Positions 7,947-32,197 of a stretch of DNA of 64,000 nucleotides are shown here, piece after piece. Below the pieces are notes generated by a model. The model saw nothing but the letters and a program-made list of their open reading frames with translations. It made no database searches and was not told where the DNA came from. The DNA is from a virus. The stretch lies in IMG/VR virus record IMGVR_UViG_3300035092_000015, positions 16,876 through 80,875 of that record; one strand, 5' to 3'. Position 1 is the stretch's first letter, and each line of letters opens with the position of its first letter. The position numbers and the translations under genes were made by a program.

Positions 7947-8788
7947 AAGACCACCCCGGGGTGTAGTTGACGCATGATCTCGATCGGCACCGGGCGGTAC
8001 CGGTCGCGGAAGCTGCGCGGGCTGCGCCCCGCCTGCAGATGGGCCTGGTATAGCGCGTTCTGCTCGGCGAAGGTCAGATCTTCGAACTCCACCCGCAGAC
8101 TGTGCCGGGGCGGTAGCTTCGCCCGGTCCAGCTTCTCCCAATCGATGAACCCGACCGCCTCGGGGTCGCTGTACGGCCCAGCCTGCGGGTCGTCGATAGT
8201 CCGGTCGGTCCAGGCTTCGAACGGCTGCCACCCCCGGGCGGTCGCGGCGGCAGCGGCGCCCCGGTCTGGCCCGTCGACGCACCACAGCTGCTGGTACAGC
8301 CGGTCGATCCGGTTGTGGGTGCGGGCGGTGACCCGGTCGAACGTTGCATGCCGCCACAGGTGCAGGTTCGACCGGGGCAGGTCACTGATACTGGACAGGT
8401 AGACCAGCCCGTACCCGCCGCGTCCCATCGCCTGCAACCGGCGGGCCACCCCGATCGGGTCGACCAGTGCCAGGACCGGGGCGACCCGGGCGATCCGCTG
8501 TGCGATCGCCGGGGTGACGCTGGCCTGCCGCCCGCTGTGTAGCCCTTCGACGGTTTTACCCCAGACGGCTGCCTCGAGCGCGATCTGGTACAGGCTCATT
8601 CCCTGCTCAAGCAGCGCCTCGATGTGCAGCCGGGTGGGGAGGGCGTTGATCCGTGACTGCCAGGTCCCGTAGGCGAGGGCCCGGGTGCGGCGGGCTTTCA
8701 ACTGCCGCCGGTATTCGGCGCAGTCGGTGCAGCCGACGTGGTAGCGGGCTCGGTGGTTGGGGCAGATTCGTGGCTGTGGCGGGACCAT
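7943..8788 (-). CDS. HTH DNA-binding protein with N-terminal Cys cluster
   Basis: CTDC; HIEALLEQGMSLYQIA HTH; RRLQAMGRGGY, typical of actinophage HTH proteins. Confidence 0.65.
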   Translation of the reverse strand: MVPPQPRICPNHRARYHVGCTDCAEYRRQLKARRTRALAYGTWQSRINALPTRLHIEALLEQGMSLYQIALEAAVWGKTVEGLHSGRQASVTPAIAQRIARVAPVLALVDPIGVARRLQAMGRGGYGLVYLSSISDLPRSNLHLWRHATFDRVTARTHNRIDRLYQQLWCVDGPDRGAAAAATARGWQPFEAWTDRTIDDPQAGPYSDPEAVGFIDWEKLDRAKLPPRHSLRVEFEDLTFAEQNALYQAHLQAGRSPRSFRDRYRPVPIEIMRQLHPGVVL

Positions 8789-10243: not shown

Positions 10244-10900
10244 TCAGGCGGGGTCGGGTTCAAGACTCCAACACGGGGTCACCCGCGCCAACGCCCGCGA
10301 CTGCTGCCGGTCGACCTCGGTGAACGGATGCTGCAGCATCGCCGCCGCGATCGCACAACACACCGCCGCCTCGGCCAGGTTGTGATCCGCCTGCCCGTTC
10401 GCCCGGTCGATCTGGAAGAACGGCCACTGCTCCCGGACCGCCTTGACCATCCTGGTTTTAGCCACCGCCCCCGACCCCAGCTGACCCGTCCCGGTTGCGT
10501 AGATCTTCAACTGTGGCGACGGGGCGATATACACCGGGATCCGGTCGGTCAGCAGAACGTCGATGATCAGACACCACATGTACGACCGTTCGATCTGCCC
10601 CCCGTACGATTGGGCCATGTCCAGCCCCTCGATGCACACCGCGTCCGGTTTGAACCCAGCTGCGTACCCGCCGATCTGCAACGCGAGTGCGGTCAGCTTC
10701 GGGATCCGTATCCCCCACGGCTGGATGGTCAGTTTGTCCTCGCCGAACAGACGGCATTCGCCGCTGGACAGCGCCACCCCGGTTGCGCGCAGCGACATGT
10801 CGATCCCGGCTGTCCGGATCGCGGGCTGGCTCGAGCGAAGCGGCAGGATCTGTGCGTCTACAGCCGGGCGTTCGATGGTAGCAGCGGTCTGATCGGCCAT
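10244..10900 (-). CDS. ruvC: RuvC-like Holliday junction resolvase
   Basis: AGIDMSLRATGVA, VCIEG, PQLKIYATG.G, DHNLAEA. Confidence 0.85.
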   Translation of the reverse strand: MADQTAATIERPAVDAQILPLRSSQPAIRTAGIDMSLRATGVALSSGECRLFGEDKLTIQPWGIRIPKLTALALQIGGYAAGFKPDAVCIEGLDMAQSYGGQIERSYMWCLIIDVLLTDRIPVYIAPSPQLKIYATGTGQLGSGAVAKTRMVKAVREQWPFFQIDRANGQADHNLAEAAVCCAIAAAMLQHPFTEVDRQQSRALARVTPCWSLEPDPA

Positions 10901-11583
10901 CGCCCGTCCACTCCTTCTGTCGGTTTCTGGTTCTTGCGCAGGTACTCGGCGAACGACGCGTCCTGCTTCTGCTTCCACTCGACCTGCAGCTGGTGCAGCT
11001 GCGGTACCGTCAAGCTGCCCAGGGCGGGGTAGAGCCGTCCGATCCGCCACACCACCCGGGCGGCTGCGAACGCATCATAGGCCGACCCGTGTGCAGATGC
11101 AGCATCCCAGGGGATCCGGTATTGGTTCGCGAGGGTCTCGAGCTTACGGCTGCCTTTACGGTACGGGTCGACTGCTTTGTCCAGGACGAACGCATCCAAC
11201 GCGAAGATCTGGCACCGGTCGGTCAACGGCGCCACCCCGTACAGGCGGCAGTTCCGGTCCAACATGGTCAGGTCGAACGGGACGTTCATCCCGACCAGCG
11301 GGGTGTGTTCGTCGACCATGATCGACAGGACCTGGCACAACGCCTCGAGCGTCTCGGCCGGGTCCGCGCCGTTCTCCTTCAGGAACTGCAGCGAGATTTT
11401 GTGTATCTCATACCCACCGGGCGGGTCAGTCAGACCCGGGTGCAGCAGGTATTCGGTGGTTTCGGCGGGCGGGGCGGTCCGGGGGATATTGATGACCGAC
11501 GCCGACAGGATCAGATCCCGCTCGGTGTCGACACCGGTCGTCTCGCAGTCGAACCCAACCATCGGCCCGTCGGTCCAGGTCAT
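10858..11583 (-). CDS. DnaQ-like (DEDDh) 3'-5' exonuclease
   Basis: GFDCETTG, VGMNVPFDLTML, AHGSAYDA. Confidence 0.9.
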   Translation of the reverse strand: MTWTDGPMVGFDCETTGVDTERDLILSASVINIPRTAPPAETTEYLLHPGLTDPPGGYEIHKISLQFLKENGADPAETLEALCQVLSIMVDEHTPLVGMNVPFDLTMLDRNCRLYGVAPLTDRCQIFALDAFVLDKAVDPYRKGSRKLETLANQYRIPWDAASAHGSAYDAFAAARVVWRIGRLYPALGSLTVPQLHQLQVEWKQKQDASFAEYLRKNQKPTEGVDGRWPIRPLLPSNARL

Positions 11584-11933
11584 CGCCGGACCCACCCGGC
11601 TTGGCGCAGCCCCTCGAACAGCTGCTCGGCCGGTTGGTGCCAACGCATCCACACCTGGCCGTTGGTGTATGCGCTGGTCTGGGTGGGGATCGGGCCTTGC
11701 CGGTCCAGGACCATCCTGGACAGTTCGACCTGCCATCCGCCGTCCGCGTCCATGTATCGGCGTCGAACCTCGACCATCGGCCCGTCGCCCGGGTCGTCCT
11801 CGTGCGGGAACAGCACCACCCCGTCGCGGCCGTCCGGCAGGGCTCCGGTGGTCCGCTGGACGTGCCACAACTCATCGGCGTTGGACATCTCGCTGGCCGT
11901 CTCGTAGACCGGCAGCCACAGGGTGATCTTCAT
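11580..11933 (-). CDS. hypothetical protein
   Basis: ATGA overlaps at both ends. Confidence 0.6.
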   Translation of the reverse strand: MKITLWLPVYETASEMSNADELWHVQRTTGALPDGRDGVVLFPHEDDPGDGPMVEVRRRYMDADGGWQVELSRMVLDRQGPIPTQTSAYTNGQVWMRWHQPAEQLFEGLRQAGWVRR

Positions 11934-12423: not shown

Positions 12424-12769
12424 CGTCGTCCCCGTCCAGTTCGGCTGCGATCTGCCCGTAGCGGCGTTGGTACACCTCGACCAGCGGTTCGGCCTTCTCC
12501 CGCTCCCACCAGCTGTTCAGATATATCAAGGTCCGTTCAAACTCGGCCCGTTCGACGAAGATCGCGCTGTGCACGACCCGGCGCAGCGGGTAGGCCGGGT
12601 CGGGGCAGCTGCCGATGAAGATCCCGACCTTTCCGTCCTCCATGATGGCCGACCACATGATCTTCGTGTGGTTCTCCTCCGCCAGGTGGGCGAAAAGCTC
12701 GTACGCGACGGGGAACCCGTCGGGCTGCGCTTTACCGTCCCAACCGAACGGGGCAGGTTCACGAGCCAT
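12407..12769 (-). CDS. hypothetical protein
   Basis: ATG at 12769; protein-like composition, in operon. Confidence 0.6.
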   Translation of the reverse strand: MAREPAPFGWDGKAQPDGFPVAYELFAHLAEENHTKIMWSAIMEDGKVGIFIGSCPDPAYPLRRVVHSAIFVERAEFERTLIYLNSWWEREKAEPLVEVYQRRYGQIAAELDGDDGGSDR

Positions 12770-13991
12770 GACGCGACCCCAACCAGGGCAAGAACCCCTC
12801 AAGCTCGACGGCGGTCGCCCGAGCCAACTCGCCGGGCTGCCCGCGCCACTCGCCGTACAACTCCCGCAGCTTCGACATAGACCACTGCCGGGCGCCGGCC
12901 AACGTCGCGACCTGGTTCCACAGGGCCATACGGTCGGGGGATGGTGAACTCGACGGTGCGGGTGAGGAGGTCGACGAACTGGTTGATCCCGGTCCGGCAG
13001 TACCGGCAGGGGCAGCGGCGTTGCCCGACGGCGGCGGGTCGGCGAGCGATGCCCGGCGGGACTGCCACGCTTGCCGCAGCGCGTCCACCTGCTCCGGTTG
13101 GAGCTTGCCGATGTTGTCCTGGATGTGGCCGCTGACCTGCTTGAGCTTGTCCAGTGTGTCCGCCTGGGCGATCCCACGCCACAAGCTGTTGAAGTCCCAT
13201 GTGTCCTCGGCGGGGGTTGCGGCGGCGGGCAGTGCGAGCGGTTGCGGGCCGGGCTCGAGCGCGGGGGCGGGGCGGGCCTCCAATGCCGGCGCGGCGGGTG
13301 CGCCGAGCAGCGCCACCGCCGGGGTCATGTCGATGTGCAGGACCGGGACCATGAACCGGGAGATCATCGTCTTATCTGGGTTGCGCGGATCCGGGACCTC
13401 CGCCTGCCGTTCCTCCATCTCCAGCCGGGCCGGGATGTGGCGGCCCAACGCAGTCAGCAGATCCACCGCGCCGGGCAGTTCGGCAGCCGCGTTGTACCCG
13501 TGCGACTCCAAACGCCACACACCCATCCCAGGGGTGTCGGCGAGCATCAAGGACACCCGGGTGGTCGGTTTACAGCCGGCTTGTTTCTTGTCCGCCGGGT
13601 CCGGCCCGCAGACACACGGCTGGTCCTCCAAAAGCTCCCGCAGCCCGTCGCAACGACGGGAACACCGGCCGTTGGTCCACTGCTCGTAGTATTGGCTGCA
13701 GGCGTTCGGCGGGACGATGACCTGCAAGCTGGTCTTGTCGATCACCACCTGGTGCTGCAGGGCGCCGTGGTCGGGTTGCCACGGTTCAGGTTCTCCGCCG
13801 TACACCAACGCGACCTGTTGGATCAACGTCTCGGACCGGGAGGTCAGCCGGAACCGGTCGAGTTTGACCGGCTCCTTGTATTCCTTGCCGGCGCGGCTGG
13901 TTTTCGGGCGGCTGGTGCCGAGCCGGATCCGGCCCACTTCGACCTGCCGCGCCTGCACGTCGGCCAGCCGGCGGGGGGTAGGAAGCGTCAT
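12759..13991 (-). CDS. Gp3-like / recombination directionality factor-like protein
   Basis: GRIRLG..PVKLDRFRLTS, RRCDG, CKPTTRVSLML, GVWRLESHGYNAA.EL. Confidence 0.8.
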   Translation of the reverse strand: MTLPTPRRLADVQARQVEVGRIRLGTSRPKTSRAGKEYKEPVKLDRFRLTSRSETLIQQVALVYGGEPEPWQPDHGALQHQVVIDKTSLQVIVPPNACSQYYEQWTNGRCSRRCDGLRELLEDQPCVCGPDPADKKQAGCKPTTRVSLMLADTPGMGVWRLESHGYNAAAELPGAVDLLTALGRHIPARLEMEERQAEVPDPRNPDKTMISRFMVPVLHIDMTPAVALLGAPAAPALEARPAPALEPGPQPLALPAAATPAEDTWDFNSLWRGIAQADTLDKLKQVSGHIQDNIGKLQPEQVDALRQAWQSRRASLADPPPSGNAAAPAGTAGPGSTSSSTSSPAPSSSPSPDRMALWNQVATLAGARQWSMSKLRELYGEWRGQPGELARATAVELEGFLPWLGSRHGS

Positions 13992-14368
13992 GTGTTACGC
14001 ACCGCCTCGAGGGTCTGTTCGAATGTCGGCTCGTGTGGTTTGCGGTTGACCTCGCCGACCAGCGTCAGCCAGGCGGCGAGCCGGAACGCGGCGGCGCTGT
14101 CGAGCTTCCGGCCGGACGGGTTGAGCAGGATGGTGGTCTGCAGGCCGGTGCTGCCGACCATGAAGTCGTTGGTCGCGTCGACCGGGGTGGCGAACTTGGC
14201 GGTCTGCAGCCGCAGACGTTCGACCTCGGTATTCTGGTAGCCGGTGTACCCGCTGCGAGCCTGCGCCGCAGCCTTGTCCACGACGCCTTTCGGGGGCGGT
14301 TCGGTGTACACCCCATGCACCACCGCGCCGTTCAACCCGATGTCTGACACTAGCACAAACACATCCAT
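13988..14368 (-). CDS. hypothetical protein
   Basis: GAGG RBS; in operon. Confidence 0.65.
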   Translation of the reverse strand: MDVFVLVSDIGLNGAVVHGVYTEPPPKGVVDKAAAQARSGYTGYQNTEVERLRLQTAKFATPVDATNDFMVGSTGLQTTILLNPSGRKLDSAAAFRLAAWLTLVGEVNRKPHEPTFEQTLEAVRNT

Positions 14369-15971: not shown

Positions 15972-16511
15972 TCAGGTCACGTGGCTGACTGGGGTGGCGG
16001 TGCCGATCCAACTGTGGATCTGCCCGTCGGTCACCACCGGGTCGGCGGTGTTGGACAGCAGCCACTCCTGGGCTGCTGCCTTGCGGGCCTGCTCGTTCTC
16101 GGCCCGAACCCGTCTCTGGTTGGCCGCCCCGGTGATCTCATACCGGGAGAACCGGTCCCACCGGTGTTGCCCGATCCGCTCCTGGTAGTGCTCGTCACGT
16201 CGGCGCAGCCAACGCTGCGCCAACCCGTCCAACACCCAGTACGACCGGTCGGACAAGGACTGCCACAGCAGCGACAGCACAGCCACGGTCGGGCGGATCA
16301 GCCGCTGCGGTGCCGGTTCGGATCGGGTCCGCAGCAGCGCACCGAGTTCGTCTTCCAACAGCCGCAGCTTGTAATGCGCCAGAGTGGCCTCCACCCCCGA
16401 ACCGATCGTGTACACCACGGCCAGGACCGGCAGCCAGTACACGCCGGTCAAGAGCGCGGCGACGATCAACACGGACACGGCGGGTACGGTACGGACCAGC
16501 CAGGACAACAT
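15972..16511 (-). CDS. membrane protein
   Basis: GGAGG RBS; two N-terminal hydrophobic helices. Confidence 0.65.
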   Translation of the reverse strand: MLSWLVRTVPAVSVLIVAALLTGVYWLPVLAVVYTIGSGVEATLAHYKLRLLEDELGALLRTRSEPAPQRLIRPTVAVLSLLWQSLSDRSYWVLDGLAQRWLRRRDEHYQERIGQHRWDRFSRYEITGAANQRRVRAENEQARKAAAQEWLLSNTADPVVTDGQIHSWIGTATPVSHVT

Positions 16512-16525
16512 CGGAACCTCCGGGG

Positions 16526-16789
16526 TCAGGCCGCTTGCTGCTGGGGATTACTGTTCTCGTGCACGCGCAGCCAACGACGCGGCACTTCGTGGGTGATGTA
16601 GACCCGGGACTTCGAATCGGTCACGTTCCGGTTGATGATCTCCATCATCTCGTCCCGAATAGCAACGAAGGTAGCGGGCGGGTCGCCGCCGCGCCGCTTC
16701 TGGATGAACTCGATCGGGTCGCACCCGAGACGAGAGGCGACCAGCTGGTACAGCGGCCGGTCGGCCAGAGGTGTGGGGGTATCTGCCAT
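16526..16789 (-). CDS. small putative DNA-binding/regulatory protein
   Basis: first gene of the leftward arm, leaderless behind TTGACG-N18-TTTGCT. Confidence 0.65.
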   Translation of the reverse strand: MADTPTPLADRPLYQLVASRLGCDPIEFIQKRRGGDPPATFVAIRDEMMEIINRNVTDSKSRVYITHEVPRRWLRVHENSNPQQQAA

Positions 16790-16883
16790 CGGTCAAGCAA
16801 ACCACGGCAAAGTGAAACCCGTCAAGCAACCTGGCGTGGCACGTCGCTTGACACACCAGCTGTGGGTTGGTATGCTCGGACCC
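16790..16883. promoter_or_regulatory. divergent promoter pair with four operator half-sites at 12-bp period
   Basis: rightward TTGACA(16848-53)-N17-TATGCT(16871-76), ATG 7 nt later; leftward TTGACG-N18-TTTGCT, ATG 6 nt later; GTGAAAC-5-AAGCAAC-5-GTGGCAC-5-TTGACAC. Confidence 0.75.
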
Positions 16884-17240
16884 ATGACCCTGACACCGAC
16901 TGACCCTGCCCTGCCCACCGCCCACGACCTCGGCCTGCAACGGTTCGACGAAGTCATCGCCCGTCTGGAGCAGCTGGGCTGGCGCCGCCTGCGCGTCGAC
17001 ACCCTCGTGTGGGAGGCCGACCAAGCCAACCACCCCCGGGCGCTGCCCACCGTCCGGCACCACTACGACCACGGGGTGTGGGAGCTGTACTACGAACTGG
17101 ACCGGTACTGGAACCACGACACCAAGCCGTTCTCGATCGCTCGGCTCGACCAGGCCGACCTGCCCACCGTCAACCAGGTGCTGGCCCAGCTGTTCGGCAA
17201 ACACCTGCGTCGGTACGTCACAACCCAACGCAGCGCATGA
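16884..17240 (+). CDS. hypothetical protein
   Basis: leaderless ATG after a near-consensus promoter. Confidence 0.7.
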   Translation: MTLTPTDPALPTAHDLGLQRFDEVIARLEQLGWRRLRVDTLVWEADQANHPRALPTVRHHYDHGVWELYYELDRYWNHDTKPFSIARLDQADLPTVNQVLAQLFGKHLRRYVTTQRSA

Positions 17241-17467
17241 TCCAGGAGCTTAGCGCCGTCGAACGGACCGCGCTGCACATCGTGGTCGAAGGCGCCAAAA
17301 CCGCCGTCGAGATGTTCCAGGAACAACCAGCCAAAACCGCCGACGGGACCTTGGTCGACGACACCACCTGCCGTCAGATCGCGCTGCTCGCCGCGAACCT
17401 CACCCACGCCATCGCCTGCTACCCCCACGTCCTGCTCGAACTCGCCGCCCAGGAGGAACCGACATGA
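17237..17467 (+). CDS. hypothetical protein
   Basis: ATGA overlaps at both ends. Confidence 0.65.
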   Translation: MIQELSAVERTALHIVVEGAKTAVEMFQEQPAKTADGTLVDDTTCRQIALLAANLTHAIACYPHVLLELAAQEEPT

Positions 17468-18513
17468 CCCGAGGCACCATCCAAGTCATCGCAGGCGGAC
17501 AGTACGGATCCGAAGCGAAAGGCGCCGTCGCCGGCTACCTGGCCGCCGAACAGGAACAGATGCTCGCGATCCGGGTCGCTGGCCCCAACGCCGGACATTC
17601 GGTGGTCGACCCGATCACCGGCGAGAAGTACGCCCTGCGGCAGATCCCCGCCGCCGCTGTTACCAACCCCGGCGCGTCGCTGTGCATCGCCGCCGGATCC
17701 GAGATCGACCCGTACGTGCTGCACGAAGAGATCGCCTGGCTCGAACGCGGCGGGATCCACGTCAAGGACCGGTTGTTGATCGACCCGGCCGCGACCTGGC
17801 TCACCCAGGACCACAAAGACCGCGAAATCACCGCCGGGATCGTCGGGCGGATCGGGTCCACCGGGAAAGGGATCGGCGCTGCCCGCGCCGCCCGGATCAT
17901 GCGCGAAGCCCGCACCGTCGGACAGCACCGGTCCGAGTTCGAACAGTACGGACACATCGGGTCCGTTGCTACCGCCGCCCGGTCCGTACTGCGCGGCGGG
18001 GCCACGGTCCAGATCGAAGGGACACAAGGGTACGGGTTGGGGCTGCACGGGGAACACTACCCGCAATGCACCTCCTCGGATTGCACCGCGTTGGATTTCC
18101 TGCAGATGGCCCGGGTCAACCCGTGGGAAGCCGACCAGCTGCAGGTGTGGCTGGTGTTCCGGCCCTACCCGATCCGGGTCGCCGGCAACTCCGGATATCT
18201 GTACGGCGAGACCAGCTGGGAGGCACTCGGGCTGGCACCGGAGATGACCACCGTCACCAAGAATATCCGCCGGGTCGGGCAGTGGGACGGCGGGCTGGCG
18301 TACGCCGCGATGCAAGCCAACGGTGGGTCGCGTGTCGTGTGGCCGGTGCTGACCATGGCCGACCAGATCGACCCTGCCCTGGCCGGGGTGACCGACTCTG
18401 ACACGGTGCTCGGGTCGGATCTGCTCGGGCAGTTCCTGAAGATCTTCGAAGCCGACGTCGGGCTCGAACCGTGCATGATCACCACCTCCGACCGCACCTG
18501 CGTGAGGCTGTGA
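17464..18513 (+). CDS. purZ: PurZ0-type succinoaminodeoxyadenylate synthetase (PurA homolog)
   Basis: GGQYGSEAKG (Ser in place of PurA Asp13), GPNAGH, IGSTGKGIG, EGTQG, YPQCTS, TTVTK..RRV, TMAD (GTP-type). Confidence 0.85.
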   Translation: MTRGTIQVIAGGQYGSEAKGAVAGYLAAEQEQMLAIRVAGPNAGHSVVDPITGEKYALRQIPAAAVTNPGASLCIAAGSEIDPYVLHEEIAWLERGGIHVKDRLLIDPAATWLTQDHKDREITAGIVGRIGSTGKGIGAARAARIMREARTVGQHRSEFEQYGHIGSVATAARSVLRGGATVQIEGTQGYGLGLHGEHYPQCTSSDCTALDFLQMARVNPWEADQLQVWLVFRPYPIRVAGNSGYLYGETSWEALGLAPEMTTVTKNIRRVGQWDGGLAYAAMQANGGSRVVWPVLTMADQIDPALAGVTDSDTVLGSDLLGQFLKIFEADVGLEPCMITTSDRTCVRL

Positions 18514-19088
18514 TGGCCAAGAAGAAGCTCCCCCTGCAGGTCGCCTGCTCGACTTGCCACCGGCAGTACAAACCCCGACCCAACAACACCCTGCCCCGCC
18601 ACAAAGACGGACTGCGGTGGTGCCCCGGCAGCTACCAGCCGCCCGCCGCACCCGACGACAACGCCACACCCGGCGGCAGTGGGTTTGCTTGGCTGCCCAC
18701 CCCCGAACCGATCCTGATCGAAGTGCCCCGAGTCGGGGCGAAAGCACAACCACTGGCCGATTGGTGGGCCGCCCGCGCCCTGGCCGAGATCGAGATGGTC
18801 GTGGCGAAAGCCGTCGAATACGGCGCCACCGACCTGCGCGACCTGGGCTACCAGATGCTGGACATGGCCGGGCGGCGCGAGCAGTTCATGGACCCGGAGG
18901 ACCTGCACTACAGCGACGCCTACGCCACCGAGGTCGGGATCGTCTTCTACGCCCAAGGGAAACTCGCCCGCGCCGTGGCCGCGATCAAAGAAGGCCGACG
19001 GCCCTCAGTCGATACCTGGCTGGACCTCGGGGTGTACGCCCGGATGGCCCAACGGGTCCACGACCGAGGCGGCTGGCCCGGTGTCTAG
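18513..19088 (+). CDS. MazG-like/DUF1599-type all-alpha nucleotide pyrophosphatase with N-terminal Zn knuckle
   Basis: KAVEYG..DL, GKLAR, DTWLDLGVYARM; coupled to purZ. Confidence 0.6.
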   Translation: MAKKKLPLQVACSTCHRQYKPRPNNTLPRHKDGLRWCPGSYQPPAAPDDNATPGGSGFAWLPTPEPILIEVPRVGAKAQPLADWWAARALAEIEMVVAKAVEYGATDLRDLGYQMLDMAGRREQFMDPEDLHYSDAYATEVGIVFYAQGKLARAVAAIKEGRRPSVDTWLDLGVYARMAQRVHDRGGWPGV

Positions 19089-19130
19089 CCGGCACTGGTT
19101 CGACCCGATCCCCGCCTGCATCTACTGGGT

Positions 19131-19412
19131 GTGGTTCATCCTGACTTACTGCACTGGCAGCTGACCATGCCCACCCGGATATCCACCGCAGACGAACACT
19201 ACTGGGAGCAGCAAGCCCGACACCTGGTCGCCTGCGACACCTGCCCCGCCCCGATCGACCAACCATGCCACTACCCGACCAGCGGAGTCGAAGCGTCAGT
19301 GTGCTGCCACACCAGCCGGATGGTCAAAGCCGTCAACCACCCCGACTGGGCCGGAAGGAAACCCAAATGGCTACCGACGAAACAATGCGCGACTGGCTCG
19401 CCCCCCAGATGA
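19131..19412 (+). CDS. small zinc-finger protein
   Basis: CDTCPAPIDQPC...HTSR. Confidence 0.5.
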   Translation: MVHPDLLHWQLTMPTRISTADEHYWEQQARHLVACDTCPAPIDQPCHYPTSGVEASVCCHTSRMVKAVNHPDWAGRKPKWLPTKQCATGSPPR

Positions 19413-19657
19413 GACGCGCCGACTGCCCCGAACCCGACTGCAACATGTGGGCCGGACATCAAGGGCTACACTCCATCGCCCCCCGGGCTAGGCACACCAT
19501 CCCCGGCTGGGCAGTGACCCTGTTCGCACTCACCGCCGGGCTGGCCATGCTAGCCGCCGCCGCCCGGATCCATCTGGAAACCGCCCTGCTCGCCGGCTGC
19601 GGGACGCTGCTGGTCGGCACCGCCATCGCCGCGATCAACGAGATGAGGAGACACTGA
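19367..19657 (+). CDS. membrane protein
   Basis: AAGGA RBS; C..C...H...H then two hydrophobic helices. Confidence 0.6.
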   Translation: MATDETMRDWLAPQMRRADCPEPDCNMWAGHQGLHSIAPRARHTIPGWAVTLFALTAGLAMLAAAARIHLETALLAGCGTLLVGTAIAAINEMRRH

Positions 19658-20610
19658 TGGGCACACCCTGGGGCGACCAACCCCCACTCGTCTACTTCGC
19701 CGAACCGATCGACAAAGCCCACGGGCAGAACTTCGCCATCGCCGCCACCATGCACGGCGCACTCACCACCTGGGGCTGCACCACCTACCGCCCCAGCGCA
19801 GCCTGGAAAGCCACCCACCTGGACTGGCGGGTCGACCACCTCAACCGGCAAGCGCTACGCCTGGCCGACCTGATCGTCGCCTACCTCGACGAACACACCC
19901 CATCGATCGGAGTCCCCGCCGAGATCGAAGCCGCCACCGCCCAGAAAATCCCCGCCATCGTGCACTACACCGGCACCTCGTTCGTCCTGGCCGGCAACCC
20001 CCTGGTCACCGTCATCACCAAAACCGAAGACCTGGTCGCAGCGGTGATGCGAGCATTGAAAGACCACCCCCGGCCCGACCGGGCCGCCGACCACCAACTG
20101 GCCCGGACCCTCGCATCGGGTGGTTCGGTCAGCCTCGGCACCATCACCCCCGCACAGGCCACCGCCCTGGTCGCCAAGATCAACGGCCCCGAACCGATCC
20201 GGCTGGTCGTCACCGAAGGCGCCGCCCCACCCCAGCGGGTCTACCAAGACGACGCCGGAATCGACCTCACCACCGCCGCCGAGATCGTCATCAACCCCGG
20301 ACAGTACGTCGACGTCCCCACCCAGGTCGAAGCCACCCAACTCCCCTCCGGATACTGGGGGTTGATCACCGGCCGCTCGAGTGCGCTGCGGAAATGGCGC
20401 CTGCACATCCCCATCGCCGTGATCGACCCCGGCTGGCGCGGCCCGCTGTTCGTCGGGGTGTGGAACCTCGGCGGGAACCCCGTCACCGTCAAAGCCGGCG
20501 ACCGGCTCGGCCAGCTGATCCTCATCCCCAACCACACCGCCCCGATCGAAGTCGTCGCGGCGGTTGAAGACCACCCCCGGGGTTTGAAAGGATTCGGCTC
20601 GAGCGGATGA
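19657..20610 (+). CDS. dut: nucleoside 2'-deoxyribosyltransferase-like domain fused to trimeric dUTPase-like domain
   Basis: N-term VYFAEPID..ADLIVAYL..SIGVPAEI; C-term DAGIDL, GRSS, VIDPGWRG, GDRLGQL, RGLKGFGSSG. Confidence 0.82.
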   Translation: MGTPWGDQPPLVYFAEPIDKAHGQNFAIAATMHGALTTWGCTTYRPSAAWKATHLDWRVDHLNRQALRLADLIVAYLDEHTPSIGVPAEIEAATAQKIPAIVHYTGTSFVLAGNPLVTVITKTEDLVAAVMRALKDHPRPDRAADHQLARTLASGGSVSLGTITPAQATALVAKINGPEPIRLVVTEGAAPPQRVYQDDAGIDLTTAAEIVINPGQYVDVPTQVEATQLPSGYWGLITGRSSALRKWRLHIPIAVIDPGWRGPLFVGVWNLGGNPVTVKAGDRLGQLILIPNHTAPIEVVAAVEDHPRGLKGFGSSG

Positions 20611-21050
20611 AACCCAGCCACCAATGCCGGGTCTGCGGACGGTGGCTCGAAGGCGAGTGGAACCGGACCACCGACCCAGACCTGCAGGCCGCCCTGCAAC
20701 GGCAGATGAACCAAGGCCACTGCGACGGGTGCACACCCGACCTCGAACGGCCCCACCAATGGCGACCCACCCGGCTCGGCGTCACCCGGATCCTGCAAAC
20801 CGAACGGCTGGCCATCCACCGGATCAACTACCTGTGGTGGTGCGCCTGGTGCGGCACACAGACCAGACAACCCGACTACCCCGGCGGGACCTGCAACCAA
20901 CACCGCCTGGCCGAACTGACCGGCCGGACCTACACCGTCGACACCAAACCGACCCTCCCAGGAAGGCCACCCAACCGGACATGGCACTCGACTACCAATG
21001 CGTGTACTGCCGCCCCCAACCCCACGCACGATTCCACAACGGGACATTGA
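20607..21050 (+). CDS. Cys-rich hypothetical protein
   Basis: three CxxC pairs; ATGA overlap. Confidence 0.55.
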   Translation: MKPSHQCRVCGRWLEGEWNRTTDPDLQAALQRQMNQGHCDGCTPDLERPHQWRPTRLGVTRILQTERLAIHRINYLWWCAWCGTQTRQPDYPGGTCNQHRLAELTGRTYTVDTKPTLPGRPPNRTWHSTTNACTAAPNPTHDSTTGH

Positions 21051-21271
21051 TCGAGATCGCCCTACACCACACCGGACGGCGCTGCCACGGCGACATCACC
21101 CGGCTCACACCCACCGAATGGGACAGTTACGCCCCCGCACACGTGGACACCGAGCTGCGCCAGAAATGGGTCCGAGGGTGGCAGGCAACCCAATCACCCG
21201 ACGCGAAACCACCCAAACCCGACCGGGTACGCCCCGCCGGGACCGTCCGCCGGCCCACCCCCCGCCGGTAG
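20981..21271 (+). CDS. hypothetical protein
   Basis: ATG at 20981; CVYC...H...C. Confidence 0.45.
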   Translation: MALDYQCVYCRPQPHARFHNGTLIEIALHHTGRRCHGDITRLTPTEWDSYAPAHVDTELRQKWVRGWQATQSPDAKPPKPDRVRPAGTVRRPTPRR

Positions 21272-21451
21272 GGTGTTGTCCCGCCAGAACCAGCGGTACG
21301 ATAGACGATCCGCGTCCGGGGACAGGAGCGGGGGGCTGCGCCGCCACGCGCAACCCCCCACCTGCTGACACCGGAACCCGCAAGACCACCCGGATCAATC
21401 CTAGCACAACCGGCCCCCGACGGCCGCCAACCACAACAAGAGGGGGGACGA

Positions 21452-23599
21452 GTGGAACGTACCCCGCTGCAGGTCGTGCTCGACGCCATCACCACCCGCA
21501 CCGGGACCGGGCAGCTGCAGAACGGGCAATGGCGACTGCACTGCCCCGCCCACCCAGACCGAAACTCCAGCCTCGGACTGGCCGAAACCCCAGCCGGACA
21601 TGCGCTGCTGTACTGCCAAGCCGGCTGCCGCACCGAAGACGTCCTCGCATCCGTCGACCTGCAGATGCGCGACCTGTACCCCATCACCAACGGCGACCGG
21701 CGCGAAGACCCCATCGTCGCCACCTACCCATACGTGGACGAAACCGGGCAGCTGCTGTACCAAGTGCTGCGGACCGCCAACAAACGGTTCATGCAACGCC
21801 GCCCCGACCCCACCCAACCCACCAAATGGATCTACAAACTCGACGACACCCGCCGGGTCCTGTACCGCCTCCCAGCCGTGCTGCAAGCCATCCGCGAAGG
21901 CCAAACCATCTACCTCGTGGAAGGCGAGAAAGACGTCCACACCGTCGAACAAGACGGCTGCGTCGGGACGTGTAACCCCGGCGGAGCCGGGAAATGGCGA
22001 CCCGAATACACCGACCAGCTACGCGGCGCCCACCTCGTGATCGTCGCCGACATCGACCCCACCGGGGTCGGGATGCGCCACGCCCGAACCCTACACCAAC
22101 AGCTACAACCAGTAGCAGCCAGCCTGCTGCTGTGCCAACCCGCCGCCGGGAAAGACACCACCGACCACCGGCTCGCCGGGTTCGCCCTGGACGAGCTGAC
22201 CATCGTCGACCCCAACCCCCCAACCCCCACCCCGCAGGCCGTCCCGCTGCCCCCGGAGGCCATCGACGGGCCGCCCGAGCCGGTATCACCCGCAACCACC
22301 GACATGGGGAGAGCGAGGATCCGGTTGACCCCCGCATCGGCGTTCACCATCAAACCCGTCCGGTGGGTCTGGGACGGACGGATGCCACTCGGCGAGATCT
22401 GCCTCATCGCCGGACGCGAAGGCGTCGGCAAATCCACCTTCCTGGCCTGGCTCACCGCCGCCATCACAAACGGTAACCTCCCCGGGGTGTACGAAGGCGA
22501 ACCCCGGGCCGTCCTGTACAGCGCCTCCGAAGACGCCTGGAGTTACACCATCGCCCCCCGGATGGTCGCCGCCGGAGCCAACCTCGACCTGGTCTACCGG
22601 ATCGACACACTCGACGACGACGGCACCCCAGGGAAGCTGATCCTCCCACGCGACAGCCGATACCTGCCCGAGATCGCCGAAGAAACCAAAGCCGCCGCAC
22701 TCATGTGCGACCCCATCCTCAGCCTCGTCGACGGAAGGATCAACCCCAACCAAGCCCAAGAACTGCGCTCCGCACTCGAACCGTTGAAACACGCCGCCGA
22801 AACCGCCGGGATCGTCGTCCCCGCACTCGTGCACTTCAACAAAACCCGCGACGTGGACATCCTGTCGATGATCGCCGGGTCGAGATCGTGGTCCGAAGTC
22901 GCCCGCGCCGCCCTGGCGATCGCCGAGGACAAAGAAGCCGAAGAATACACCTGTGTCGTCTCCCAGGGCAAGAACAACCTCGGCCGTAAAAACCTCCCCA
23001 ACCTGCTGTACACCATCGACGACGTAGCGTTGGAGACCGAGGACGGACCACCTGCCAGGGTCGGCCGGCTGCGGTGGACCGGCGAGACCGAACTGGAGGC
23101 GGAAGAGGTGCTGCAACGCAAACCGACCAGCCAAGCCAACCGGGAGAACATGAACCGGACCCAGGCGGCGATCTTGGACTGGCTGGACGAACAGGGCCGC
23201 GCCTGCAGCCCCCGCGAGGTTGCCGATGGGCTGCCGGACGTCCTGAACTATGAGAACGCGAAGAAAACCCTCGCCCGGCTGGCGTCACGCGGCGTAATCC
23301 AACGGGTAGGGACAGGCTTGTATCGCACCGAACCTGCTGTCCCTGCCGCTGGAGCCGGGTCAACGCCCATGCGTACGCGCGACCCCCTCGGAAAACAGTC
23401 CCCGTCCCCCGCCCAAGTCAAGGGGGGTGGAGGGACTGGAAGTAAGGGTATACTTGTCCCCGCAGGGACTGGAGGAGGGACTGGGACGCAGGGGGCGGGC
23501 AAGTTGTCCCCCGAGGTGGTAAGGAGTTGCACGGTCTGCTACGGACCGTTAACGATCACCGAGCCCGGCCAGACCACCCACCCCACCTGCGAGCCCTAG
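21452..23599 (+). CDS. DNA primase-helicase (Zn finger + TOPRIM + RepA/AAA_25 helicase + wHTH)
   Basis: CPAHPD..SL, CQAGC, LVEGEKDV, IVADID..G, GREGVGKST Walker A. Confidence 0.9.
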   Translation: MERTPLQVVLDAITTRTGTGQLQNGQWRLHCPAHPDRNSSLGLAETPAGHALLYCQAGCRTEDVLASVDLQMRDLYPITNGDRREDPIVATYPYVDETGQLLYQVLRTANKRFMQRRPDPTQPTKWIYKLDDTRRVLYRLPAVLQAIREGQTIYLVEGEKDVHTVEQDGCVGTCNPGGAGKWRPEYTDQLRGAHLVIVADIDPTGVGMRHARTLHQQLQPVAASLLLCQPAAGKDTTDHRLAGFALDELTIVDPNPPTPTPQAVPLPPEAIDGPPEPVSPATTDMGRARIRLTPASAFTIKPVRWVWDGRMPLGEICLIAGREGVGKSTFLAWLTAAITNGNLPGVYEGEPRAVLYSASEDAWSYTIAPRMVAAGANLDLVYRIDTLDDDGTPGKLILPRDSRYLPEIAEETKAAALMCDPILSLVDGRINPNQAQELRSALEPLKHAAETAGIVVPALVHFNKTRDVDILSMIAGSRSWSEVARAALAIAEDKEAEEYTCVVSQGKNNLGRKNLPNLLYTIDDVALETEDGPPARVGRLRWTGETELEAEEVLQRKPTSQANRENMNRTQAAILDWLDEQGRACSPREVADGLPDVLNYENAKKTLARLASRGVIQRVGTGLYRTEPAVPAAGAGSTPMRTRDPLGKQSPSPAQVKGGGGTGSKGILVPAGTGGGTGTQGAGKLSPEVVRSCTVCYGPLTITEPGQTTHPTCEP

Positions 23600-23628
23600 C
23601 CGTCGGGACCGCGTGATAGAGTGCAGGG

Positions 23629-23892
23629 ATGGCAACCCAGATCCAACCGGGACAACCCGGTGACCTGCCCGACCACCCACGCCCCATCAGCAGCACCACC
23701 TACCCCTGGGACCAATGGGCCGACGGACACACCTGGCTGCTCACCCGAGACACCGACTACACCGACACCACCCACAAAGTCACCGAAGCCGCCAAGAAAC
23801 ACGCCCAACGCCACGGCTACCACCTGCGCTACGCCACCACCCCCAACAGCATCCGCCTACGATTCATCCCGAAGGAACCCGCCACACCATGA
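23629..23892 (+). CDS. small putative DNA-binding protein
   Basis: YPWDQWADG..W.L...DY; leaderless behind TAGAGT (23617-22). Confidence 0.65.
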   Translation: MATQIQPGQPGDLPDHPRPISSTTYPWDQWADGHTWLLTRDTDYTDTTHKVTEAAKKHAQRHGYHLRYATTPNSIRLRFIPKEPATP

Positions 23893-25331
23893 GCCGACGT
23901 ACACCCACCCCAGACATCGACCGCATCTGGACCACCACCTGGACCACACACCTGTGGCACCAACAATGGCTCGCCCATTTATACACCCAAACCCGAGCCA
24001 ACCCCAACCACCCAGGACACGACCACCTCGACCACTACCACCAAGCCGCCCAGCAATACGCCGACAACCCCACCCCGTGGTTGATCGAACAAGGGCACCA
24101 AGAACAGATCACCCGACACGACCTCCAAGCCGCCCTCGACATCTACAACCAGCACGCCGGACACGACACCGCCCACCTCGGACTCACCAGCCACGACATC
24201 ACCGACCCCACCACCCAGATCCAGATCCGAGACAGCGCCAACCACATCCTGCGGCAGATCACCGAACTCGCCCACCTGCTCGGACAGCAAGCCCAAACCT
24301 GGCGCCTGCAACCGCTGCTCGCCCGCACCCACGGCCAACCCGCCCAGACCACAAGCTACGGACACCGGATCGCCGCCACCATCACCCCGCTGCTGGCGGC
24401 CGGGGCCCGGCTCGAGGCCGCGATCCAGAACTACGACTTCCGCCCCCCGCACGGTGCGGTCGGCACCTCTGCTGACCTGAACCGCGTCCTGCACGGGTGG
24501 GCCGGGCACGGGAACGGCCCGACGACGGCCTCGGAGGGGTCTCCGAGCGCCTCGGAGCCCCCAGCGGGTATTTCGGGCCCCCCAGGAGCTTCGGAGGCCG
24601 CCGGAAAGGCTTCCGAAGCCGTCGACCTGTACGGCGTTTTGATCGCCAAAGCGGCCGGGTTCCAGTTCGTGATGCCCACCACCCGTCAGATCTACCACCG
24701 GTCCTACGACCTGCCGATCGCCTCGGCGATGGTGGAGATCGCGGCGGTCGCGCAGACCTGGGCCACCGACCGGCGGCTGGAGGCGATGCTCGGGTTGGGC
24801 AACGAGGCCCGCGACCCGGGGCAGGTCGGTTCGTCTGCGATGGCGCATAAGACCAACCCGGTCCTGTGCGAACGGATCTGCAGCCTGACGTCGGTTACTC
24901 GGAGTCACTACACCGGGTTGGCGGAGATCGCCGGGCAGGGGTGGCTCGAGGGGGATGTGTCGACCTCTGCAGCCCGGCGGTTGTTGCTGCCGCAACTGTT
25001 CTCGAATGTCTCGGCGATCTTGATCAACTGGCGCGACGCCGCCCTGCGGTGGGAGCCGGATTGTAAGCAGCTGTCCCGTGAGTTGGAGTTACACAACCAG
25101 GAGGTGTCGACGGGGGCGTTGCTGCACTACCTGGTCGAGTCGGGGGTGCCACGGTCGGAGGCCCACCGGCGGCTGCGTGGGGGGGTGTTGGGGCTGCTGG
25201 CCGATGCGGATGGCGAGGAGCATGATCGGTTACTGGCTGTGATGGTGGATGCGTCTCGGATCCCGGTGCAGGCGTTGGTCGAGGTCGATGTGATTGTGGC
25301 GGCGACGGCATCGCTCGGCCCGTCCAGTTGA
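23889..25331 (+). CDS. purB: adenylosuccinate lyase (fumarase/ASL superfamily)
   Basis: HLGLTSHDITD, ARTHGQPAQ, GAVGT, GSSAMAHKTNPVLCERI signature. Confidence 0.88.
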   Translation: MSRRTPTPDIDRIWTTTWTTHLWHQQWLAHLYTQTRANPNHPGHDHLDHYHQAAQQYADNPTPWLIEQGHQEQITRHDLQAALDIYNQHAGHDTAHLGLTSHDITDPTTQIQIRDSANHILRQITELAHLLGQQAQTWRLQPLLARTHGQPAQTTSYGHRIAATITPLLAAGARLEAAIQNYDFRPPHGAVGTSADLNRVLHGWAGHGNGPTTASEGSPSASEPPAGISGPPGASEAAGKASEAVDLYGVLIAKAAGFQFVMPTTRQIYHRSYDLPIASAMVEIAAVAQTWATDRRLEAMLGLGNEARDPGQVGSSAMAHKTNPVLCERICSLTSVTRSHYTGLAEIAGQGWLEGDVSTSAARRLLLPQLFSNVSAILINWRDAALRWEPDCKQLSRELELHNQEVSTGALLHYLVESGVPRSEAHRRLRGGVLGLLADADGEEHDRLLAVMVDASRIPVQALVEVDVIVAATASLGPSS

Positions 25332-25346
25332 CACCCGGGGTGGCAC
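25328..25346. promoter_or_regulatory. operator-like site TTGACAC-N5-GTGGCAC
   Basis: matches the recurring 7-5-7 motif; includes TTGACA. Confidence 0.5.
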
Positions 25347-25391
25347 GGTGGTTTCCTGGCGGGCGGGATGAGCGAGAGCTAAGCTGGATCT

Positions 25392-25574
25392 ATGGCAGCC
25401 GATGTCTCCGCCCGAGTCCGGATCGTCAAAGTCTTCAACCTCGAAGAACAACTCCGCGACCAGGTCCAAACCCTGCGCGACCAGGTCCAAACCATGCAGG
25501 GGCAAATCCAGACCCTGCAGGGCCAGGTCCAGAACCTGAACCAACGAGTCACCGCACTGGAGAACGCACCTTGA
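25392..25574 (+). CDS. small coiled-coil protein
   Basis: heptads LRDQVQT/LRDQVQT/MQGQIQT/LQGQVQN encoded by 21-nt repeats. Confidence 0.7.
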   Translation: MAADVSARVRIVKVFNLEEQLRDQVQTLRDQVQTMQGQIQTLQGQVQNLNQRVTALENAP

Positions 25575-25587
25575 GAGGACGGCATCT

Positions 25588-26130
25588 GTGGTAAGCGACG
25601 GATACTGGCTGGCCGCCCCCGGCCACGACTGGCGGCGGGTCAAGCTCGAGGACTACCTGACCGCAGCCGGCAACGCCGGACTGTACCGTACCGTCACCGA
25701 CCGGCCTCCCGAGGCGTTCACCGACATCGCCTCCGGGATCCGAGGAACCACGTCCGACCCGAACGCGGACCCGCAGGAGATCCCCCGGTTGCACGTGCAA
25801 GGCCGGACGTTGAACGAGCAACAACTAGCTGCCTTGCGCACTGCGTGGGGCCAGGTCGGCGCTGTGCTCGCACAGGTCCGTGCCGACACCATCGCGGCGA
25901 TGCGGGTTGTTGCCGAAGCAATGGGCGCCGCTGTCGATGAGGCTCAGAAGGTCCGGGAGGCTGCGACGATCAGGAACCAACCCTGCACGGCCGCACCCGA
26001 CGATGTGCTCCGCCGTGTGTGCTACGTCTGGACGACCCACGAACATCCCGACCTGCCCGGGGTTCAGGTCGAGACCTGTATGCGGTGCGGGGAGCCCAAC
26101 TGGGAGGCTCTAGCTAAACTCCTCCAATAA
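25588..26130 (+). CDS. hypothetical protein
   Basis: GAGAGGA RBS; C-terminal C..H..CMRC. Confidence 0.6.
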   Translation: MVSDGYWLAAPGHDWRRVKLEDYLTAAGNAGLYRTVTDRPPEAFTDIASGIRGTTSDPNADPQEIPRLHVQGRTLNEQQLAALRTAWGQVGAVLAQVRADTIAAMRVVAEAMGAAVDEAQKVREAATIRNQPCTAAPDDVLRRVCYVWTTHEHPDLPGVQVETCMRCGEPNWEALAKLLQ

Positions 26131-30601: not shown

Positions 30602-31104
30602 CCCAGCCCGACGACCGGCTGTACCAAGACCTGCGGCAGGCGTTGAACCGCAACAGCGCCGAGAACGGCAGCAACACCCCCGACTTCATCCTGGCCGAAT
30701 ACCTGCAGTCTTGCCTGCGGGCGTTCGACCACGCTGTGCGGACCCGGGCGTCCGCGACCCAGTTGAGCCCGCTGGACCCGAACCCCGGGTCGACCCTGTT
30801 CGCGCGTTTCGACCCTGTCGAGCAGCCACTGGCTGTCCTCCCGGGGATCCAGACGCTGCTCGAGCAGCACGTCAAAGCTGTGGAGGAGTTGCTGCGGACG
30901 GCGGCGTGTGCGGTGTGCGGCGACCCTGCGGTCATGCTGATGCAGACCAAGCCGGCGCGGATCGGGTTCCGCCGGGATGCGACGGACGACCTGGCGTTGA
31001 GGATCACGGAGGAGGTCCGGCCGTTGTGCGCCGCCCACTCAGACACACCGATCCAGACGCCGGACGTCCCGTCTGACCCGTACCTGTGGGAGTCCGGGAC
31101 ATGA
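30598..31104 (+). CDS. hypothetical phage protein
   Basis: AAGGAG RBS; LNRNSAENGSNTPDFILAEYL. Confidence 0.7.
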   Translation: MTQPDDRLYQDLRQALNRNSAENGSNTPDFILAEYLQSCLRAFDHAVRTRASATQLSPLDPNPGSTLFARFDPVEQPLAVLPGIQTLLEQHVKAVEELLRTAACAVCGDPAVMLMQTKPARIGFRRDATDDLALRITEEVRPLCAAHSDTPIQTPDVPSDPYLWESGT

Positions 31105-31279
31105 CCGGCAAGATCCCAGAGAGCGTCTTCATCGACGCCAACCGGGCCCGCAACAGCGAAGTGCACGGGCTGAACAACGGCGGGCTCGAGCGTCTGATCG
31201 TCATCGGCGCCCGCGAACGCGGATTCCGCGCCGCCGTCGCCGCCGCCTACCGCGCCGGCCAGGCCAGTACAATAGACCC

Positions 31280-32197
31280 ATGCACCCACACGTGTGGAAC
31301 CCCCGGCTGCACCCCCGCGACCGGATCGGCCAGTTCACCGACACACCCGGCAGCGGGTCGTGGCTCTCCCGGGCTGCCGAGCAGGCCCGGCGCGGGTTCA
31401 CCGACGCCGAGCTTGCACAGCGCGAGCAGGACGTCAACGACCTGATCGCCGGGAGCCGCCATCTGGACACCCACCGGGTGCACAAACCGAACGGACGCTG
31501 GTCCGACGAACGGGCCGCCGCTCACCGGGAGATCTTGGACAGGGTGTGGGCGGAGAAAGCCACCCGGGTGCCGAACGAACACCGGGCGGTGATGACCGGC
31601 GGGTTGATGGGCGCCGGAAAGACCACCGTCCTAGCCGGACACCCCGAGATCGACATGTCCGACTACCTGATGGTGTCGGCCGACGACATGAAAGAGGAGA
31701 TCATCCGCCACGGTCTGGTCCCGCGCATCCCGGGCGCCGAACACCTGTCGCCGATGGAGCTGTCGGCGATGTACCACGTCGAATCGGCCTACCTGGCGGA
31801 CGCACTGGCCGAACGCGCCTACGCCGAAGGGAAGAACGTGATCCTGGATGCGTCGATGGGCGACCGGACTGCCCCGGCGGCGCGGCTGGCGCGGCTGCGC
31901 GACATGGGCTACCAGGTCCGGGGGGTGTTCGTCGACATCCCGGTCGAGACGAGCCTGCAACGGGCGTCGGCCCGGTACCGGTCGGGGATGCAGCAGTGGG
32001 GCAGCGGTACCGGCCCGGGCGGGCGGACGATCCCTCCGGCGTTGATCGAGGGGCAACGCGGCCCGGGTGGGATGACGAAGAACCGGGTGGTGTTCGACCA
32101 GCTGCGCGAGGAGGGGTTGTTCGGGGCGGGGTGGGAGGTACACGACAACACCGGGTCGGCGCCGGTGCTGTTGAAGCGCGGAGGAATACAGACGTGA
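31280..32197 (+). CDS. zeta-toxin-like P-loop kinase with N-terminal HPRD tag
   Basis: WNPRLHPRDRIGQFTD; GGLMGAGKTT Walker A; SADDMK; NVILDASM; leaderless behind TACAAT (31268-73). Confidence 0.85.
   Translation: MHPHVWNPRLHPRDRIGQFTDTPGSGSWLSRAAEQARRGFTDAELAQREQDVNDLIAGSRHLDTHRVHKPNGRWSDERAAAHREILDRVWAEKATRVPNEHRAVMTGGLMGAGKTTVLAGHPEIDMSDYLMVSADDMKEEIIRHGLVPRIPGAEHLSPMELSAMYHVESAYLADALAERAYAEGKNVILDASMGDRTAPAARLARLRDMGYQVRGVFVDIPVETSLQRASARYRSGMQQWGSGTGPGGRTIPPALIEGQRGPGGMTKNRVVFDQLREEGLFGAGWEVHDNTGSAPVLLKRGGIQT

Follow-up and report, generated by a model that had tools for sequence, protein, structure and literature searches.

Layout of the Locus

The stretch of DNA analyzed here, referred to as the window, comprises 64,000 nucleotides (bases 16876-80875, G+C ~67%) of the IMG/VR record IMGVR_UViG_3300035092_000015. 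This record of 80,875 bp carries an exact 127-bp terminal repeat and is a complete virus genome according to CheckV. Its source is an uncultured actinophage, with high-GC bacteria as hosts. Between 17.4 and 25.4 kb of the window lies a candidate module for 2-aminoadenine (Z) DNA together with a primase-helicase, all on the plus strand (Table 1). The module includes a synthetase assigned to the PurZ0 type, a small protein coupled to it, a putative DmtZ-DutZ fusion and a PurB-like lyase. A 7.9-kb stretch covering these genes had no megablast match among 50,697 phage records. The only close relative, referred to as the sister, is the contig IMGVR_UViG_3300017605_000880 (72,977 bp, 93% complete), which has the same gene order and a PurZ0 that is 89–90% identical to that of the window.

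Table 1. Open reading frames (ORFs) of the candidate Z module and its surroundings, with lengths in amino acids (aa) and positions in the window. The exonuclease in the last row lies outside the module.
Feature	Position	Strand	Basis of the assignment
PurZ0-type (2-amino)adenylosuccinate synthetase (predicted), 349 aa	17464-18513	+	7vf6 match, PHROG 1211, PurZ0 clade
PurZ0-coupled protein, 191 aa; predicted zinc ribbon (~10-45) and four-helix domain (79-185)	18513-19088	+	TGATG overlap, AlphaFold2
Small zinc-finger ORF, 93 aa	19131-19412	+	Pfam Phage_zn_bind_8 (1.5e-5)
ORF of 130 aa	19265-19657	+	No significant family match in Pfam or PHROG
Putative DmtZ-DutZ fusion, 317 aa; NDT-like (~1-125) and dUTPase-fold (~185-317) parts	19657-20610	+	Pfam, residue alignment
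Cys-rich ORF, 147 aa	20607-21050	+	Sub-threshold Pfam matches only; ORF of the same length in the sister contig
Primase-helicase, 715 aa	21452-23599	+	AAA_25, PHROGs, weak Toprim_3
ORF of 87 aa	23629-23892	+	No match in Pfam or PHROG
PurB-like adenylosuccinate lyase, 481 aa	23886-25331	+	Lyase_1, PDB relatives, signature loop
DnaQ-like 3'-5' exonuclease	10858-11868	-	RNase_T, PHROG 192

The Synthetase Groups With PurZ0

In a PDB sequence search the best solved relative of the synthetase was 7vf6 (8e-86, 291.7 bits), which is the PurZ0 of Gordonia phage Archimedes according to the main text of a 2026 study (PMC12884076). Other solved structures scored lower, namely PurA of P. horikoshii (160 bits), the PurZ proteins of phiVC8 (121.5 bits) and S-2L (96 bits), and E. 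coli PurA (~61 bits). The protein also matches PHROG 1211 (4e-77), and its gene has an AGGAGG ribosome-binding site 8 nt upstream of the ATG.

A prediction made earlier from the sequence alone, hereafter the original prediction, had described a PurA homolog with GSEAKG, in which Ser takes the place of the catalytic Asp, and with TMAD. Both features can be seen in the alignment. The P-loop reads GGQYGSEAKG, with Ser at the position of the Asp in GGQWGDEGKG of P. horikoshii PurA, and GSEAKG is common to the window protein, 7vf6 and all eight known PurZ0 that were aligned. ATP-type PurZ have GSTGKG at this site and PurA GDEGKG. The segment VLTMADQ, which we take to determine the choice of GTP, is kept as well; it aligns to VLTGLD or TMLD of PurA and is a gap in all four ATP-type PurZ.

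The original prediction had also proposed a phylogeny with PurA, PurZ and PurZ0 as a check. A maximum-likelihood tree of 15 rows, including the eight known PurZ0 and rooted on one PurA as a single long-branch outgroup, places the synthetase and its sister inside the PurZ0 clade (support 100/99), with the ATP-type PurZ in a clade of their own (99/98). Within the PurZ0 clade the window and sister proteins form a long branch, and identity to the PurZ0 of cultured phages is 42–51%. Judged from motif and tree, the synthetase is best classified as PurZ0-type.

A Putative DmtZ-DutZ Fusion and a PurB-Like Lyase

As described in the main text of the 2026 study, the PurZ0-type set for Z-DNA consists of PurZ0, DmtZ-DutZ, which removes dATP, and a phage PurB (PMC12884076). 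The Dut-like DutZ of PurZ0 phages converts dATP and dGTP to the monophosphates, and DmtZ, an NDT-like enzyme, cleaves dAMP and is able to pass deoxyribose 5-phosphate on to the Z base. The same source counts dutZ in 98 of 98 PurZ0 genomes, dmtZ in 85 and a fusion of both in 77.

An NDT-dUTPase fusion had been predicted for the window, and its C-terminal dUTPase domain is clear (PF00692, 5e-23; PHROG 135, 6e-32). This DutZ-type domain lies 1.1 kb downstream of purZ0 and shares 59 of 130 residues (45%) with the assayed protein of Arthrobacter phage Wayne. The NDT-like N-terminus is weak and stays below the Pfam cut-off (see below). In an alignment, all five DmtZ residues Tyr6, Asp12, Pro57, Asn77 and Glu103 of Gordonia phage Ghobes are kept as Y13, D19, P46, N63 and E89 of the fusion, and they are kept likewise in Wayne, Hiyaa, Galactica, Archimedes and the sister. 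For this comparison Ghobes gp53 was taken as the published DmtZ, since it carries Tyr6 and Asp12. In GenBank both Ghobes gp53 (L005:17693-18178) and Archimedes gp53 (L010:5343-5780) are named "deoxyuridine triphosphatase." Both align to the NDT-like half of the fusions, with the DmtZ residues, and the true Dut-like genes of these phages are gp55. The window protein is accordingly labeled here as a putative DmtZ-DutZ, with a dATP/dGTP preference that we take from the Wayne domain.

The original prediction had called the composition of the pathway unusual, but given the genome counts cited above (PMC12884076) it is the norm for PurZ0 phages. Its suggestion of a different way to exclude dATP, without DatZ, has fared better, as the route through DutZ and DmtZ is now published (PMC12884076). 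DatZ is a gene of ATP-type PurZ phages.

The predicted PurB was recovered as an adenylosuccinate lyase homolog (Pfam Lyase_1, 6.5e-18). It has 39 solved relatives, the best of which are adenylosuccinate lyases (4nle, 1e-42), and its signature loop (SSxMxxKxN) reads GSSAMAHKTNP. The protein has an insert rich in Ser, Ala and Pro. The ORF as listed starts at 23715, and the start at 23886 was chosen from the 480-aa sister protein. Hiyaa, Galactica and Ghobes already have an annotated purB gene beside purZ0. We also surveyed 81 PurZ0 loci, consisting of the window and the best 80 of 282 IMG/VR relatives, and found purB within the fetched flanks of 29. A search of literature listings found no paper on a phage-encoded PurB together with PurZ, or on 2-aminoadenine and Streptomyces phages.

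Synthetase and lyase could also be read as ordinary auxiliary PurA and PurB enzymes that form AMP from IMP and supply more adenylate, with no Z involved. The two enzymes do act one after the other in AMP synthesis, and each matches its Pfam family. However, the catalytic Asp is replaced by Ser, the synthetase falls in the PurZ0 clade, and in relatives the adjoining DmtZ-DutZ destroys dATP and dAMP, which would be senseless beside a pair that boosts adenylate. For these reasons we rejected this explanation as highly improbable.

A Helical Protein Coupled to purZ0

The TGA of purZ0 and the ATG of the gene behind it overlap (TGATG at 18511-18515), so the coupling noted in the original prediction is borne out. 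The label "MazG-like" that came with it is not. The 191-aa product had no PHROG match, no PDB sequence match (E ≤ 1) and nothing relevant in Pfam down to E ≤ 10, and the profile comparisons described below were negative for MazZ, DUF550 and DUF5664. In AlphaFold2 models (pLDDT 86.8 for the full-length protein, 93.3 for the isolated domain) a zinc ribbon precedes a four-helix domain, in which each long helix has conserved acidic and basic residues. The zinc ribbon is probably an optional add-on, because short family members of 106–130 aa have nothing but the helical domain. Longer homologs (P0123, P0134, and P0003) have at least two zinc-finger or zinc-ribbon units N-terminal to it.

The family is large, with 947 cluster representatives in a library of 1.84 billion proteins, 928 of them at E ≤ 1e-10. 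In the phage collection, 31 records carry the helical domain (Microbacterium 18, Gordonia 6, Streptomyces 5, Micrococcus 1, and Curtobacterium 1), and the non-Arthrobacter PurZ0 records show the same genus counts. The correspondence between the two sets of records is one of equal genus counts (Microbacterium 18, Gordonia 6, and Streptomyces 5), with seven of the 31 records inspected directly; in all seven the helical gene immediately follows purZ0.

The same linkage was seen in the IMG/VR survey, where the helical gene lies on the same strand and at most 1 kb downstream of purZ0 in 72 of the 76 loci with at least 1.3 kb of downstream sequence. Two of the other four have DUF5664 instead, and two (L050 and L084) have neither. 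For comparison, Dut was found downstream of purZ0 in 58 of 60 surveyed loci and DmtZ in 53 of 60. A reciprocal survey, which relied on a single peptide pattern and covered 25 loci (several of them on contigs of the first survey), found purZ0 directly upstream in all 22 helical-query loci with at least 1.2 kb of upstream sequence. A single database protein, P0162 (549 aa), joins the synthetase and the helical domain in a natural fusion. The zinc-ribbon/four-helix protein thus looks like a near-obligate further member of the PurZ0 set. The gene goes unmentioned in the main text of PMC12884076, perhaps because proteins were annotated there by Pfam; the supplements (Figures S8, S9 and tables) may list the helical gene or PurZ0 genomes that lack PolA.

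In other phages the slot behind purZ is taken by DUF5664 (Wayne), by MazZ (S-2L) or by a DUF5664-DUF550 dATP/dGTP pyrophosphohydrolase (an Acinetobacter phage), and by analogy the position of the 191-aa gene suggests a MazZ-like role. The protein could thus be a divergent all-alpha nucleotide pyrophosphohydrolase that does the job of MazZ or DUF5664 and converts dGTP to dGMP for PurZ0. This would fit the exchange against DUF5664 in two loci, the natural fusion to the synthetase, and a four-helix domain with acidic and basic residues conserved in each long helix. Yet hhalign comparisons of the family with MazZ, DUF550 and DUF5664 were not significant (E 0.06–0.8), whereas positional counterparts used as positive controls were recovered at 1.7e-29 (Ghobes gp51), 2.1e-34 (Hiyaa gp68), and 1.1e-37 (Goodman gp55). 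The targets were a 35-row DUF5664 alignment and single sequences of MazZ (S-2L and phiVC8), DUF5664-DUF550, Wayne gp51/gp52, Ghobes gp52, and Archimedes gp52; the alignments of the helical family have little depth (Neff ~3), so remote homology could escape such a comparison. PF18909 (DUF5664) and PF04447 (DUF550) had no match at E ≤ 1 anywhere in the complete genome.

Structural searches did not point to MazG either. Foldseek against the PDB returned nothing at E ≤ 0.001 for the whole or the domain-only model, and the nearest named look-alike in the ESM Atlas was DUF1599 ("nucleotide modification associated domain 1"; TM 0.70 over 98 residues), with DUF6378 also near. The language-model scores of these look-alikes were 0.90–0.91. 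The likeness to these phage proteins is one of predicted structure; the hidden Markov models of PF07659 (DUF1599) and PF19905 (DUF6378) matched nothing in the genome at E ≤ 10. When 41 family members were scanned singly against Pfam, they gave zinc-finger noise, DUF6378 in two members (best E 0.015) and DUF7830 in two. A search of literature listings on DUF1599, DUF6378, and Nmad1 found nothing about function. That DutZ would already supply dGMP also counts against a pyrophosphohydrolase, which we regard as a plausible idea that is somewhat more doubtful than probable.

The family can be studied directly because cultured phages carry the gene, namely Ghobes, Archimedes, Goodman and Hiyaa (gp51, gp51, gp55, and gp68, respectively). 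The gene most faithfully linked to purZ0, and once fused to it, is one that has neither a name nor a Pfam family.

Replication Genes

The primase-helicase named in the original prediction is present (AAA_25, 6e-22; PHROGs 239, 6088, 47, and 10729). It has a zinc finger, a Toprim-like region with a weak Toprim_3 match (E 0.028), and a RepA/DnaB-like ATPase, with no polymerase domain, and the PDB sequence search gave no match. The complete genome had no match at E ≤ 1 to PF00476 (PolA), PF00136 (PolB), PF07733 (Pol III alpha), or PF09250 (Prim-Pol), and no polymerase came up when the larger ORFs were scanned with Pfam and PHROG. PF12917 (DatZ) was likewise without a match at E ≤ 1. The statement that neither DatZ nor DpoZ is recognizable therefore stood up to a search of the whole genome, but the accompanying suggestion that they could lie outside the window did not, as both are absent from the complete genome. 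Other replication functions are encoded: the DnaQ-like exonuclease matches RNase_T (6.8e-11) and PHROG 192 "DNA polymerase exonuclease subunit" (2.3e-29), and its actinophage relatives are annotated as DnaQ-like. The genome also encodes a RuvC-like resolvase and a further exonuclease.

None of the four polymerase families was found in the sister contig. In all eight cultured PurZ0 phages inspected, PolA lies just upstream of purZ0, and in the survey it lies within 10 kb of purZ0 in 24 of the 39 loci with at least 9 kb of upstream sequence. Among 20 records with no PolA in the flank, 18 lack it throughout, including 8 of the 10 with a completeness of 90% or more. These eight near-complete records all have Prim-Pol, and they lack both PolB and Pol III alpha. 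Of the tested genomes, the only ones without any recognizable polymerase are those of the lineage of the window and the sister (two of two records). As the cultured phages have PolA and the other PolA-less genomes Prim-Pol, this lineage lacks something that the others keep.

The same counts, together with a genome in which no Z-selective or other polymerase was found, could argue for a more limited function. The module might alter nucleotide pools without a full rewriting of the genome, either through partial or transient substitution or by using dZ nucleotides against host defenses, because the host replicase and mismatch system may not be forcible to full Z without DatZ or DpoZ. Against this stands the dATP-removing pair of DutZ and DmtZ, which is intact. 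Expression of the purZ-mazZ-datZ triad in E. coli reportedly leads the host polymerases to put Z into DNA. We consider such a limited function unlikely and prefer a module for Z-DNA in a phage that is replicated by its host.

Proposed Route to Z-DNA

Starting from the observed family identities, conserved residues, gene order and absences, and with the characterized proteins of Wayne, Ghobes and Archimedes as models for every enzymatic step, we infer the following route. PurZ0 would join dGMP and aspartate to N6-succino-2-amino-dAMP, and the phage PurB would remove fumarate to leave dZMP, which host kinases could raise to dZTP. The DutZ half would convert dATP and dGTP to dAMP and dGMP, thereby removing the competitor and feeding PurZ0. 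The DmtZ half would split dAMP into adenine and deoxyribose 5-phosphate, and might in addition transfer the sugar phosphate to free Z base. As only a Toprim primase-helicase and a DnaQ-like exonuclease and no polymerase were found, the host replicase would have to build the phage DNA, presumably recruited by the primase-helicase. Z would then enter the DNA through depletion of dATP rather than through choice by a Z-selective polymerase. We put the probability that this complete, uncultured 80.9-kb actinophage carries a PurZ0-type Z-DNA module and is replicated by its host at roughly 0.8.

Several points weigh against this reading. The N-terminus of the fusion matches Pfam Nuc_deoxyrib_tr only weakly (E 0.0013–0.004, 17.7–19.3 bits with a cut-off of 28.8). 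The absence of a polymerase rests on four Pfam models and on PHROG and Pfam scans of the larger ORFs, and a very divergent polymerase may be present among the unannotated ORFs. The sister purZ0 (L004:6049-6200) has a frame change in the P-loop codons between GGQYGS and EAKG, which splits it into an ORF of 317 aa and a small N-terminal fragment; the cause may be a fault in the assembly, or the gene may truly be a pseudogene or dispensable. Window phage and sister are both uncultured, so that Z substitution and use of the host polymerase are conclusions drawn from genomes. GTP use by the synthetase is likewise read from its motif. The original PurZ0 paper reportedly gives nucleotide preferences opposite to those printed in the 2026 study. 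Section 24 of PMC12884076 prints nucleotide preferences that run opposite to those in the introduction of bioRxiv 10.1101/2025.10.22.683976, where ATP use is treated as the derived state of PurZ; in one of the two, the order appears to be swapped.

A more far-reaching version of the host-replicated reading can be put forward only tentatively, and we would sooner bet against it. Here the helical protein would be an overlooked core component of the PurZ0 pathway, either a new enzyme family or a PurZ0 partner, with the pool of purine deoxynucleotides as its target. PurZ0, the helical protein, DmtZ-DutZ and PurB would be all that this lineage needs to have an unmodified host Pol III write Z-DNA, with proofreading perhaps biased by the DnaQ-like exonuclease of the phage. 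The PurZ0 pathway has been described before, and the phage is mainly another member in a new phage backbone; what goes beyond print is the polymerase-less context and the unnamed gene family linked with purZ0. A complete PurZ0 genome that lacks a polymerase raises the prospect that pool editing alone may suffice for a cellular replicase to build Z-DNA, which, if true, bears on the engineering of Z genomes in bacteria.

Comparison With Known Z Systems

The window phage shares the PurZ0 clade, the Ser P-loop and the lack of DatZ and MazZ with Wayne, Ghobes and Archimedes, and the NDT-Dut fusion with its five DmtZ residues is found in Wayne as it is here. Unlike the window phage, Wayne has DUF5664, and all three have an annotated PolA (DpoZ-1) and primase-polymerase. 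Their genomes are also smaller (44–45 kb, compared with 81 kb).

A genome size similar to that of the window phage is seen for the Streptomyces Hiyaavirus group (Hiyaa, Galactica, Spocter, and Keanu; 81–83 kb). Hiyaa and Galactica have the same order of purZ0, helical gene and NDT-Dut fusion, with purB a few kb downstream, and the Hiyaavirus PurZ0 proteins are 47–48% identical to that of the window. In contrast to the window phage, the Hiyaaviruses have upstream genes for DNA polymerase I and a separate helicase.

Cyanophage S-2L resembles the window phage in lacking DpoZ and in having a small gene coupled directly downstream of purZ. However, its PurZ is of the ATP type (GSTGKG, with the guanine-site segment deleted) and it has DatZ and MazZ, none of which is found in the window phage. 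S-2L presumably also has a PrimPol, whereas the window phage has no Prim-Pol.

Genome Backbone and Other Genes

The large terminase is ~45% identical to those of the Streptomyces phages Zuko, Dryad and Wentworth. These three are not among the five Streptomyces PurZ records of the phage collection, and the phage looks like another backbone that has acquired the Z module. The region from 16000 to 26000, with the replication genes and the Z module, has more A than T (AT skew 0.13–0.33) and more C than G on the plus strand, and this skew is much stronger than in the left arm. Within the module, the zinc-finger ORF of 93 aa and the ORF of 130 aa overlap in different frames, and it is uncertain which one is real.

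A protein of 411 aa on the minus strand (12759-13994) has a Gp3-like "recombination directionality factor-like" domain (2.8e-39). A temperate lifestyle was considered on account of this domain; no search for an integrase was made. Two PurZ0-bearing IMG/VR records (L048 and L067) are classed as "provirus" by IMG/VR, and an integrated Z-phage would need to switch between A-DNA and Z-DNA.

Sugar genes occupy positions 2062-8381 on the minus strand, where a GT2 glycosyltransferase, a TOD1/MUCI70-like transferase, an NAD epimerase/dehydratase, a methyltransferase and a GT1 glycosyltransferase (PHROG 7162) were identified, and an Rv2179c-like exonuclease sits within this block. The targets of glycosylation might be the virion, the host surface or DNA. 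Further genes encode a protein of 398 aa with a Zeta-toxin/AAA_33 kinase domain (31001-32197, 1.5e-14) and, elsewhere in the genome (L019:11549-12637), a protein of 362 aa with a weak SAVED-like match (8e-4).

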